This document shows, piece after piece, positions 36,635 through 59,662 of a stretch of 64,000 nt of DNA. The DNA is from an uncultured bacterium (lineage in GTDB: Bacteria > Verrucomicrobiota > Kiritimatiellia > PWTM01): positions 105,961 to 169,960 of the forward strand of contig CALLFZ010000003.1 of the NCBI GenBank assembly GCA_938010045.1. Direction: 5' to 3'. Position 1 is the stretch's first letter, and the number at the start of each line of letters is the position of its first letter. The notes beneath the pieces are model-generated. The model saw only the letters and a program-made list of their open reading frames with translations. It was not told where the DNA came from and ran no database searches. Position numbers and translations under genes: made by a program.

Positions 36635-37431
36635 GACGGGTCTGCGGGGACGGGTCTGCGGGGACAGGCACGTCGTGTCGGCCGGGCACTCGGCGATCGT
36701 CGCCTCTCGTAAGCCGCCACGGGGTCGTCACGGGGGACAGCCCCACGCGCACCGCGCTGTAGCTCCGGCGCTCCGCCGCCGGAGCGATGCGCGCGAACTT
36801 GGGACATGGACCGCGGGCTAGGGACCGCGGGCTAGCCGTGGGGACATGGCCGTTGGGGACAGGCACACACTTCGTGGGGGCTTTCCAGGTGCCTGTCCCC
36901 CGTTTGGGGCCCGCGCGGACGGAGGGCAGGTGGGGAGGGCTGAGGGGGGCTGATGGGCCGCCCTTGGGGACAGGCACACACTTCGAGCAGGCCATTGGGG
37001 ACAGGCACGAGCGCAAACGACGCAACAATCTCGCTTTCAATCTACTGTGACTTCTTGACTGGTGCCTGTCCCCCGTTTGGGACCCACGCGCACCGCCGCT
37101 GTAGCTCCGGCGCTCCGCCGCCGGAGCGATGCGCGCGAACTGGGGGCCGGGACCGCGGGCTGGCCGTTGGCCGTTGGGGACAGGCACCTGGCAGGCTTGA
37201 TGGATCGCTGTTGGGGACGGGTACGCCTGGGGCGCGGCAGCGCGGACGGAGGGCGGGTGGGGAGGGCTGAGGGGGGCTGAGGGGGGCTGGTGGGGACAGG
37301 CACGTCGTGTCGGCCGGGCACTCGGCGATTGGCGCCTCACGTAAACCGCATACAAGCGCTGAGCCGAGCGTGACGGTCGGAGTCTGCTTTCGGCCCAGGC
37401 CTATCCCCGGTCTTTGATTGGGGATAGGCAC
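36635..37431. repeat. Mosaic REP/BIME-like repeat cluster A
   Basis: 8 perfect GGGGACAGGCAC 12-mers (+: 36660, 36855, 36966, 36997, 37176, 37292; -: 36889, 37062) plus variants; two GTAG-hairpin 27-mers (36759, 37101); 38-bp direct repeat at 36660 and 37292. Confidence 0.9.
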
Positions 37432-55683: not shown

Positions 55684-56364
55684 ACCGGCCGCGATGCTGA
55701 GACCGCGCATGGGACCTCCAGCCGGCACGAGGAGAGCAGGCCTTCGTTCGGTGCTGTGGCTGCCGATCGCCCATATTCTGCGACTCGCGACGGGGAGCCG
55801 ATGCGGACGCGGAAAAAAGAAGTCACGGAAACCGAGGCGTTCGCGTGCCCAAAATGTTCGAGAACGCCTGAGATCGCGGTATCGGTACGGCGAATTGAGC
55901 GCGGCGATGGAGCGGGTCAGAGTCGAACCCCTCGTGTAGGCGTGGTGGTGCTGCGTTTCGGCGCCTCCGCGACTGGGCCTGTGTTCGCCGGCCACATGCA
56001 GCCTCCATGAGACCATGCGACCAATGAGACCATGGCCCCGACTGACAGGGGCGGTGTATCGAGAAATGTCGGTCGGCGCCGGCGTGATGGCCGTCCTCGG
56101 GATGGGGCATTGGCTGGCGCGGCGCCGGCAGGGCTGGACGTGGCCAAACTCAAAGAGCGGGCTGACGACTTTGACCTGTGCGGCAGGCGGGGTCGCGTCG
56201 GGCGGGGGCCTCATCTAAAAATTTCGGACGAAGGTGGCCCCCGGATCGGATGCCGGCATGAGCCGACCATCACGAGAGTGGCTGCACCCGGCGTTTTTTC
56301 CTGCCCTGCTTGGTGGTTGCCCGGGTTGATCCCCGCCGAATTTTGCAGCCGAATTTTGCACTTG

Positions 56365-57362
56365 GGCCTGTCCCCAATCGAACACACTAGGCGTGCCCGT
56401 CCTCGGCATCGGCAGCCGGGCCATCCTTCCTTGACGTGCCTGTTCCCAGTGGTCCCCCAACCGCCGGCCCGAGTGCCTGTTGTCGGGGACAGGCACCACA
56501 ACCGGCACCACAACCAAACAAGTGGGGACAGGAACCACAACCAAAAGAGTGAGAGGGAGAGATTCGTGCGTAGCTCGCGCATGTGCCTGTCCCCAGTTAC
56601 GGAGTGGGGACTTACGGAGTGGGGACAGGCACTCCCTCCTCGCCCCAGGGCAGGCCCGACCGCCAGACGCCACTCCTCGCCCTACATGCCCGGGCCCAAT
56701 GGGGACAGGCACCAGGAAACCCTCGCTCCGGCGGCGGAGCGCCGGAGCTACAGCGGCTGGAAGTGCGTGCCGGAAGTGCGTGCCTGTCCCCAAGGGCGGC
56801 TCGGGGTCCCTGTCCCCAGTTCGCGCGCATGGCTCCGGCGGCGGAGCGCCGGAGCTACAGGGGCGGCGCGCGTGGGCTCCAAACGGGGGACAGGCACCGG
56901 TCAAGAAGTCAAGAAGTTACAGTAGAAGATGTAAAGCGAGATTGTTGCGTCGTTTGCGCTCGTGCCTGTTGCGCTCGTGCCTGTCCCCAATGCCTGTCCC
57001 CAATGGCAGTCCACAATGCCTGTTGCGCTCGTGCCTGTCCCCAATGGCAGTCCACAATGGCATAGGGGGCAGCAAAGGGGACAGCAAAGAGGACGGCCCA
57101 AGGGGGCCCAAGGGGACAGGCACCTGGAAACCCAAGGGGACAGGCACCAGGAAACCGGCACCAGGAAACCCTCGCTCCGGCGGCGGAGCGCCGGAGCTAC
57201 AGCGGCGGTGCGCGTGTGCCTGTCCCCATGACGACTCCATGGCGGCTGGCGCGAGGCGACGATCGCCAAGTACTCTCTGCGCCCACCCAGACTGCCTGTC
57301 CCCGGCAGACCGACCATCCGCCCCCGAGCTCTGTTCCCAAGGGCCGCGAGGTGCCTGTCCCC
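56365..57362. repeat. Mosaic REP/BIME-like repeat cluster B (inverted homologue of cluster A)
   Basis: 12 perfect 12-mers (+: 56485, 56621, 56701, 56886, 57112, 57136; -: 56583, 56780, 56977, 57031, 57216, 57351) plus variants; three minus-strand GTAG-hairpin 27-mers (56725, 56832, 57174). Confidence 0.9.
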
Positions 57363-57629
57363 AGCGACCACCCCGAACGCCACGCTCGACTCGGCGTTTG
57401 GTGGCTAGCGCCGCGCCGCTCCCCATGTTCTCGTCTTCCCCCACAGAACACGTTCAGCCCTTCCTCAACACGCTCACAGGAGCTTCTTGGCCCGCAAGGT
57501 CTGGAAGACGCGTCGGATGGCTTCAAGATCGGAAGAGTCGTCGAGGCGATCCCAACCGAAGAGCGAGGGGGTGTCGCGAAATTCACGTGGGCTTGATCCA
57601 CCGCACCTTCGACCCGGGTCCAGGCCTGA

Positions 57630-59662
<2,033 letters not shown>

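Follow-up and report, generated by a model that had tools for sequence, protein, structure and literature searches.

Two clusters of the 12-mer GGGGACAGGCAC lie in a 64,000-nt stretch of a bacterial draft genome (positions 105961-169960 of contig C3 of genome G000; hereafter the window), and short pieces of DNA in and beside these clusters occur exactly twice in tandem. What kind of process leaves such duplications at this motif is the question that the locus raises. A first-pass annotation had listed eight of them, had noted that seven include part of a perfect 12-mer and that their sizes fall in a narrow range, and had attributed them to repeated nicking at or near the 12-mer followed by fill-in, a site-directed and locally sequence-diversifying process rather than random slippage. 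Inspection of the sequence and of the TRF rows for the 64,000-nt window confirmed all eight as exact two-copy repeats at the positions collected in Table 1. When set against the motif coordinates, seven of the eight overlap a perfect GGGGACAGGCAC or its complement, and the eighth (36808-36835) abuts a decayed copy. Both clusters are located in gene-free gaps, as seen from motif coordinates and open reading frames.

Events were oriented on motif positions 1-12 and termed 'down' when the duplicated unit starts inside the motif and runs 3', or 'up' when the unit ends inside the motif. Five of the eight window duplications (56492, 56597, 56759, 57143 and 36635) have the canonical junction, that is, a start at position 8 or an end at position 6; the junction of 36635..36662 is ambiguous over positions 3-6 and hence compatible with position 6. 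The 36808 duplication occupies the corresponding place relative to a decayed motif, and those at 56955 and 56978 lie 3-5 nt off the canonical junction. The duplication at 56597..56626 is situated in the loop separating inverted motif copies, and that at 56978..57003 gave a second near-complete motif at 56990-57001 with 1 mismatch. The 24-nt (57107..57156) and 14-nt (57143..57170) duplications share a right-hand boundary, after GAAACC.

Table 1. Motif clusters and tandem duplications in the 64,000-nt window. Motif positions are counted 1-12 on the motif strand.
Feature	Position	Strand	Description
Cluster A	36660..37431	.	GGGGACAGGCAC: 8 exact and 1 one-mismatch copies
GACGGGTCTGCGGG x2	36635..36662	+	'up', motif 36660-36671, period 14
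GGACCGCGGGCTAG x2	36808..36835	+	adjoins decayed motif (TGGGACAT|GGACC), analogous to 'down' junction
Cluster B	56364..57362	.	GGGGACAGGCAC: 12 exact and 6 one-mismatch copies, both orientations
Cluster B setting			gap without genes, upstream of GAPDH and PGK genes (ORF list)
GGCACCACAACC x2	56492..56515	+	'down', motif 56485-56496, start position 8, period 12, no microhomology
TTACGGAGTGGGGAC x2	56597..56626	+	'up', motif 56621-56632, end position 6, period 15, no microhomology
GGAAGTGCGTGCC x2 (motif strand: GGCACGCACTTCC x2)	56759..56784	-	'down', motif 56780-56791(-), start position 8, period 13
TGCGCTCGTGCCTGT x2	56955..56984	-	'down', motif 56977-56988(-), start 5-6 (GGGG|ACAGG), period 15; off canonical junction
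TGCCTGTCCCCAA x2	56978..57003	-	11/12 motif bases copied, period 13; off canonical junction
GGCCCAAGGG x2	57095..57115	+	short 'up', ends at position 3-4 of motif 57112-57123
24-nt tandem duplication, whole motif inside	57107..57156	+	sequence, TRF rows
GGCACCAGGAAACC x2	57143..57170	+	'down', motif 57136-57147, start position 8, period 14
TGTTCCCA	57332..57339	-	half of decayed motif (TGGGAACA on opposite strand)

Motif matches with at most one mismatch numbered 27 in the window, against 0.51 expected from shuffles. In the whole genome (3.216 Mb in 49 draft contigs, 67.7% G+C, 98% complete) the motif occurs 727 times when one mismatch is allowed and 460 times exactly. The exact copies are grouped in 124 clusters that mix both orientations, and many of these clusters lie at contig ends. 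The conserved core was found to be 13 bases long, T-GGGGACAGGCAC, with a T before GGGG in 385 of 450 copies. Flanks outside this core are heterogeneous and mosaic: 507 pairs of copies share the left flank, 779 the right flank and 43 both. Such free combination of flank families is consistent with exchange at the motif or with rounds of local re-copying, and BIME-like clusters are 'mosaic' in the same way. In a set of 40 relatives, G000 alone has the 13-mer in large number (394 copies); G007 has 21, G002 15, G035 6 and two others 1. Rfam gave no family for 56000-57700 at E ≤ 0.1, and a literature search with the 12-mer string found nothing related.

We then listed every exact two-copy tandem repeat of period 8-40 in the genome, excluding low-complexity units (n = 415). 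In the whole 3.2-Mb genome, 74 of the 103 exact tandem duplications of period 11-16 overlap a motif copy; motif copies make up 0.27% of the DNA, and the overlap rate is about 1900 times background. The density of duplications was 8,482 per Mb over the motif itself (74 duplications in 8,724 bases of territory), 376 per Mb at 1-20 nt from it (9 duplications), 106 per Mb at 21-100 nt (4), 37 per Mb at 101-300 nt (2), 5.5 per Mb at 301-1000 nt (1) and 4.5 per Mb beyond 1 kb (13). Several of the 29 non-overlapping duplications abut decayed motifs at the same relative position. On this map the duplications are clearly not equally common away from the 12-mer (8,482 versus 4.5 per Mb). The narrow size range noted in the window also held genome-wide: periods near motifs peak at 12-13 (12, n = 26; 13, n = 27; 14, n = 14; 15, n = 7), and away from motifs periods 8-9 alone are common.

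The position of the duplications relative to the motif is fixed nearly to the base. A start at position 8 (GGGGACA|GGCAC) is compatible with 31 of 39 'down' events, and an end at position 6 (GGGGAC|AGGCAC) with 20 of 46 'up' events, the remaining 'up' events being scattered over positions 2-11. A scan of all possible anchors with exact events gave maxima at the same two places, anchor 8 (31) and anchor 6 (19). Four motifs, e.g., that at C18:23433, have sequence on both sides of the central A duplicated. Both junctions have the form C-W|G, CA|G for the top strand and CT|G for the bottom strand, when each is taken on the strand whose copying would proceed 5' to 3' from the junction. All 51 canonical events have periods of 12-15 except for one 'up' event of period 22. 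The other end of the duplicated unit is also non-random. With the primary junction held fixed, the far junction, 12-15 nt off on the same strand, comes after C-N in 23 of the 31 'down' and 13 of the 20 'up' events; C occupies the far-junction offsets in 17-34% of cases as a background among all copies. Hand counting of 'down' events with at most one ambiguous base placed the far junction after C-N in 14 of 17.

Random slippage, which the first-pass annotation had argued against, would set the positions of duplications by local repeats. The junctions are instead concentrated at positions 8 and 6, on either strand and at one point of the motif, and many lack microhomology: among the 51 canonical events e = 0 in 18, made up of 10 of the 31 'down' and 8 of the 20 'up' ones. 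Together with the genome-wide enrichment, this upholds that part of the annotation. Microhomology of two or more bases, mostly CA, was present in 14 of 31 'down' events. A search for split copies, in which 11-mers anchored at position 8 or 6 were followed wherever they recurred within 4 kb, found a spacing of 12-15 nt for 34 of the 49 'down' and 20 of the 28 'up' cases. No inserted-element family was found between split copies within 4 kb, and the few distant pairs are paralogous modules.

The repeat itself could be placed in a known family, which the first-pass annotation had not recognised. TIRYT/TIRtron repeats are inverted repeats flanking RAYT-like Y1 (HUH) 'tyrosine transposase' genes. 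The available text of Di Nocera, De Gregorio and Rocco (2013; PMC3733652) gives them a shared TIR core, GGGG[AT][CG]A[CG] (GGGGWSAS), and that of Quentin et al. (2018; PMC6006769) gives the same core and designates TIRYTs as TnpA-Y1 subclass 2.1. GGGGACAG within our motif fits this consensus. The abundance of the motif is likewise that of TIR families, with 460 exact copies in 124 mixed-orientation clusters, those of the window being in gene-free gaps. Moreover, exact copies of the 12-mer bracket a 281-aa Y1_Tnp gene in a Clostridia metagenome-assembled genome (MAG; locus L169, Pfam score of 67 bits) and a 289-aa Y1_Tnp gene in Halobacillus salinus (L175, 45 bits). A second pair in the same Halobacillus genome, two 14-mers 1.5 kb apart (L017/L018), enclosed no PF01797 match at E ≤ 0.01. 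From the consensus fit and the flanked Y1_Tnp genes, the 12-mer belongs to the TIRYT/TIRtron repeats, and T-GGGGACAGGCAC is, judged by sequence, the conserved core of a family of this type. A scan of public genome contigs for the 14-mer gave at least 128 matches at at least 121 loci, and about 4,400 are expected by chance in the 596 Gb scanned; single 14-mer matches in many phyla were therefore rejected as proof of spread. Spread across phyla is concluded from multi-copy counts, because the exact 12-mer occurs 11-86 times each in five unrelated genomes with 0 in a reversed-pattern control.

Anchored duplications recur in these other genomes. In the Clostridia MAG we found a 12-nt unit ending at position 6 and a 16-nt unit ending at position 7, and in Halobacillus a 14-nt unit ending at position 6-7 and a 13-nt unit ending at position 5. 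A Planctomycetales MAG (L050) has a same-position duplication with a 16-nt unit ending at position 6; among the 128 14-mer matches listed, 1 has an anchored duplication. Same-position duplications, partly decayed, are also present in the relatives G002, G007 and G035. Scanning of metagenome contigs with the pattern motif-N7-10-GGCAC returned at least 120 matches, and 27 of the 120 listed have anchored duplications (13 exact, 7 with 1 mismatch and 7 with 2). Of the 13 exact cases, two have a 6-nt inner period and four have one common unit; identity of 7-10 free bases by chance is negligible.

The duplications appear to be recent. At the 727 copies, 31 anchored 'down' events are exact, 14 have one mismatch and 9 have two, and the corresponding 'up' counts are 19, 19 and 22. 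Some of the mismatched events are frame-edge effects only, and this continuum from exact to 1- to 2-mismatch copies counts as a sign of recency. We also aligned contigs (not reads) from three public runs of one study, X1, X2 and X3, to 55900-57800. Long contigs from all three match this interval with 1-7 other letters. The 12 letters at 56492, one copy of GGCACCACAACC, are missing in contigs of all three runs (3/3), which otherwise match the window at >99%, and the 15-nt duplication at 56597 is retained in all of them. The 14-nt duplication at 57143-57170 is present in an X1 contig; an X3 contig has 15 gap letters, 1 placed, over 57017-57199 and, from the gap count, may be without it. Contigs of X1 and X2 have an extra tandem TGTTCCCA behind 57331, at the decayed half-motif, in a polymorphic duplication that is only 8 nt long and has its junction after motif position 7. 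The contigs, which may derive from the sample behind the assembly, show the existence of both alleles rather than their frequencies. At least one window duplication (56492) is thus polymorphic, in a comparison made between contigs rather than the population reads that the first-pass annotation had proposed. A fourth run, X4, from a hot-spring metagenome, was set aside, having only repeat fragments and a relative of the flanking gene that has diverged.

A profile search of the 98%-complete assembly with PF01797 gave 0 matches at E ≤ 0.001, and three remnants of Y1 genes were recognised by other means. The first (C4:93328-93546) is 73 aa long and shares 48% identity with the N-terminal part of the 361-aa Y1 protein of a relative; the HUH motif is degraded to L-D-H and the frame is interrupted by a motif copy. 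It matched no Pfam family at E ≤ 0.01 and was identified by BLASTP to the relative's protein. The second (C36:53195-53305) is a short C-terminal scrap adjoining the motif. The third (C1:3294-4174) is a divergent Y1-like gene beside tRNA-Arg, split over two frames, which keeps H-F-H and Y...NP, scores 18 bits only and is without a flanking motif. No pair of motifs in +/- orientation encloses a transposase-like ORF anywhere in the genome, and no TIRtron was found. A Ku gene was not found in the genome either, which favours an enzyme that conserves bond energy.

We consider the duplications best explained by nicking with a HUH enzyme, primed synthesis of 12-15 nt and rejoining, a process that would amount to small-scale BIME amplification, and we put its probability at roughly 0.55. 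One strand would be nicked mid-site after C-W, at GGGGACA|GGCAC on the top strand or GTGCCT|GTCCCC on the bottom strand, and the enzyme would remain on the 5' end through a phosphotyrosine link. Host polymerase would then extend the free 3'-OH by 12-15 nt with displacement of the old strand. The new 3' end, preferably C-N and possibly freed by a second cut by the enzyme, would join the enzyme-linked 5' end, and one round of replication would leave an exact tandem duplication that starts from the nick and requires no microhomology. An intact site would be regenerated, making the rounds repeatable, and repeated rounds on either strand could give rise to the stuttered flanks, the partial sites and some of the new whole sites of the clusters. 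We infer the enzyme, the chemistry and the order of these steps from the observed junction anchoring, size range, far-junction bias, polymorphism, motif family and recurrence in unrelated genomes.

Much of this chemistry has a precedent. The TnpA_REP enzyme of E. coli, in the available text of Ton-Hoang et al. (2012; PMC3333891), cleaves BIME DNA in its single-stranded form, becomes joined to it by a 5'-phosphotyrosine link and performs strand transfer, and its cut sites are loose, CC|T or C|T. The same authors proposed that the first cut provides a 3'-OH primer that host polymerase extends, and that a second cut, now in the newly made strand, releases a 3'-OH to attack the first enzyme-DNA link, thereby adding a BIME unit on either strand; this amplification model (Fig. 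7B, PMC3333891) was put forward without in vivo demonstration. We prefer the HUH nick because the near boundary is fixed, the far boundary is C-centred on the same strand and both strands are used, and because neither homology nor end-joining is required.

Several observations count against the HUH nick. Only broken Y1 genes are visible here, with no intact cognate gene, and the Y1 family (PF01797) is also absent in two of three genomes of the same genus that were searched. Nunvar et al. (2013), in the portion available, describe as common the situation in which REPs are abundant and their RAYT is missing. The 'up' junctions are looser (20/46 at position 6), three events have a filler of 2-3 bases between the copies, and by the C|T rule of E. 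coli the cut in the bottom strand would be displaced by 1 nt from most junctions. The 12-15-nt ruler is left unexplained. IS200/IS605 enzymes act on the lagging-strand template; no replication-strand bias was found here, the nicked strand being the G-rich one in 24 events versus 18 and the motif orientation itself 285 versus 313. Having an inverted partner no more than 80 nt away made no significant difference either (odds ratio 1.47, p = 0.15). To our knowledge, no TIRYT enzyme has ever been assayed.

A staggered double-strand cut would act on the same DNA in another way: a nick in the motif and a cut in the other strand 12-15 nt away would leave 5' overhangs to be filled and rejoined, as in abortive transposition without an insert or when an element with the motif as its target leaves an excision footprint. 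Target-site duplications too are exact, of narrow size range and without microhomology, the three events with 2-3 filler bases look as if they came from end-joining, and the complement of the C at -2 would be the G at +2 of an opposite-strand cut. However, no element lies between the split copies, whose spacings are nearly all 12-15 nt. Target-site duplications or excision footprints would be expected as same-length direct repeats around resident elements, and the anchored repeats are almost all adjacent. No transposase-like ORF is enclosed by motifs in +/- orientation, Ku was not found in this genome, and the far-junction bias fits the primary site better on the same strand (C-N| versus C-W|). 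We consider such a cut unlikely. Somewhat less credit still can be given to the view that no dedicated enzyme is involved, the motif acting as a protein roadblock, or inverted copies forming a hairpin, that stalls replication while the polymerase slips or switches template. This would suit an assembly without an intact cognate enzyme gene, the over-representation of microhomology of at least two bases (14/31 'down' events, mostly CA) and the abundance of inverted copies in the clusters. It is opposed by the one third of events that have no shared junction base, by junctions fixed to 1 nt on both strands, by the lack of association with an inverted partner or a replication strand, and by the recurrence of the same junctions in genomes of low GC content whose flanks differ.

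Neighbouring repeat modules that resemble each other in part could recombine unequally or undergo gene conversion and so give apparent duplications, and both the mosaic flanks (507 left, 779 right, 43 both) and the larger duplications (periods 17-40), which hold whole motifs and could arise in this way, point in that direction. The 12-15-nt unit includes 5-6 motif bases only and has, for that reason, no homologous partner at the right spacing, and unique flank sequence is duplicated in most events, which makes recombination an improbable source of them. An artefact of assembly or sequencing is the least credible account. The 49-contig draft does break within motif clusters, and one duplication is absent from other contigs, but the 15-nt duplication at 56597 is present, with others, in independent contigs of three runs, the pattern is also found in many unrelated public assemblies, and assemblers do not create 12-nt tandem copies at one fixed position of a motif.

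The proposal of a nick at or near the 12-mer with fill-in thus holds as to a site-directed footprint, with its fixed junctions and enrichment; as to the nuclease, the genome offers broken Y1 genes only. We saw no sign of a purpose to diversify sequence, and the duplications are better regarded as by-products or local amplification of selfish TIRYT/TIRtron repeats. The observation itself is real and strongly non-random, across the genome and across phyla, and its object is a known kind of selfish repeat. Going one step beyond the HUH nick, we tentatively suggest, at a little under even odds, that the scars are a base-resolution in vivo record of a TIRYT enzyme (TnpA-Y1 subclass 2.1) that would nick either strand at C-W|G, centrally in a 13-nt site that different phyla have conserved, start synthesis of 12-15 nt from the nick and rejoin the ends; such a 'stutter' would seed half-sites and new sites, build the mosaic clusters and still be active in a present-day marine population. 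A small share of the probability goes to a bolder variant in which no Y1 enzyme is needed and some other motif-recognising activity does the work, because the genome is without an intact Y1 gene.

RAYT and TIRYT genes are among the commonest bacterial 'domesticated transposase' genes. Subclass 2.1 was found in 14.9% of strains in the available text of Quentin et al. (2018; PMC6006769). Junction-anchored 12-15-nt tandem duplications are unmentioned in the same text, where 'tandem' occurs 0 times and 'duplicat' once, about genes, and in that of Di Nocera et al. (PMC3733652), where the word 'duplication' occurs 0 times and binding and cleavage of the repeat by its cognate enzyme are named as future work. 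The anchored-duplication footprint appears to be undescribed in the TIRYT/RAYT literature examined. Some 50-110 anchored duplications now yield a predicted cut site for each strand, a predicted C-N rejoining preference and a 12-15-nt ruler, and anchored short duplications could serve as a sequence signature for scoring the activity of this enzyme class in genomes and metagenomes.

Comparison with known systems sets the footprint apart from each of them in some respect. Target-site duplications and excision footprints of DDE transposons are likewise exact, short, narrow in length range and free of homology; here there is no insert between the copies, one boundary is fixed in the motif and Ku was not found in the genome. 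Cas1-type integration, as in casposon and CRISPR repeat duplications, also produces exact short duplications in a narrow range without homology, whereas no spacer separates the copies here. With the TIRs of TIRtrons and TIRYTs, the motif has in common the consensus, the occurrence as single copies, inverted dimers and intergenic clusters, and the flanking of Y1_Tnp genes by the identical 12-mer in other phyla; in contrast, the genome described here has hundreds of copies and broken Y1 genes only. Classical REP/BIME elements are 20-40-nt imperfect palindromes with a GTAG/CGTC head, whereas the 13-mer is non-self-complementary and without such a head, hairpins being possible only between separate inverted motif copies. 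The model for E. coli REP/BIME and TnpA_REP similarly invokes a nick, 3'-OH priming, a second cut and a rejoining that adds a tandem unit, and its cleavage is loose and C-centred with both strands possible, C-centred as are the junctions here. The unit added in E. coli, however, is a whole BIME from GTAG-headed hairpins cut at C|T, and here it is 12-15 nt including half a site, from a non-palindromic site with the junction C-W|G. REPIN clusters of Pseudomonas fluorescens SBW25, in the available text of Bertels and Rainey (2011; PMC3116915), likewise represent local tandem amplification of RAYT-associated repeats; what is amplified there is the whole REPIN together with its flanks, in units of tens to hundreds of nt, whereas the units described here are half-sites with a fixed internal junction.

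Across the whole genome assembly to which the window belongs (G000), 507 pairs of motif copies were similar in their left flanks and 779 in their right flanks; only 43 were similar in both. The families of left flanks are distinct from those of right flanks, and the two combine almost freely. The motif seems to be a joint between modules. Many contigs of the assembly stop within motif clusters (C3 at its end and C5 at its start are examples), and some of these ends overlap one another. The repeat family is therefore the cause of the assembly fragmentation, and motif copy counts in G000 are lower bounds.

A second repeat, a GC-rich palindrome consisting of CTCCGGCGGCGGAGCGCCGGAG followed by CTACAG, is found alongside the 12-mer. 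The assembly contains 37 exact copies, with a median distance of 43 nt to a motif copy. In public sequencing runs, contig depth across the palindrome is about 200 times that of its flanks.

The GCCGAATTTTGCA duplication lies just outside a motif copy and is thus not anchored within the motif; a contig from public run X2 differs from the window at 56348-56356. One copy of the GGCCAACGA repeat is absent from a contig of a diverged relative in the hot-spring metagenome run X4. At loci L201, L209, L279, L293 and L312, all on metagenome contigs, arrays of a 6-nt GGCACN unit directly follow the motif, and may have been built up by round after round of re-copying of very short stretches from the same motif junction.

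Positions of repeats in the window and of Y1 transposase gene traces in G000
Feature	Position	Description
GCCGAATTTTGCA x2	window 56335-56360	exact 13-nt duplication; 3 nt outside one-mismatch motif copy 56364-56375 (-)
GGCCAACGA x2	window 57697-57714	exact 9-nt in-frame tandem repeat; within open frame, distant from motifs
CTCCGGCGGCGGAGCGCCGGAG + CTACAG	window 56722-56757, 56830-56867, 57172-57207, 36757-36790	GC-rich palindrome
Y1 trace 1	G000:C4:93328-93546	N-terminal remnant, HUH degraded, truncated by motif copy
Y1 trace 2	G000:C36:53195-53305	C-terminal scrap adjoining motif
Y1 trace 3	G000:C1:3294-4174	divergent Y1-like gene adjoining tRNA-Arg; H-F-H and Y...NP kept, but divided between two frames

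Three traces of Y1 transposase genes were found in G000, all outside the window. An intact TIRYT gene, encoding a Y1 transposase and flanked by the motif, is present in a Clostridia metagenome-assembled genome (MAG), where motif pairs crowd the surrounding 21-kb stretch (L178, G042:C63:1-20000). Same-orientation motifs in this stretch are spaced 31-45 nt apart, GCAACT is conserved immediately upstream of the motif, and this upstream piece shows 8-10-nt stutters. In Halobacillus (L186-L197, G041), the site is the 20-mer GGGGACAGGCACYTYGTCCC, which contains a 5-bp hairpin and is mostly arranged in inverted pairs.
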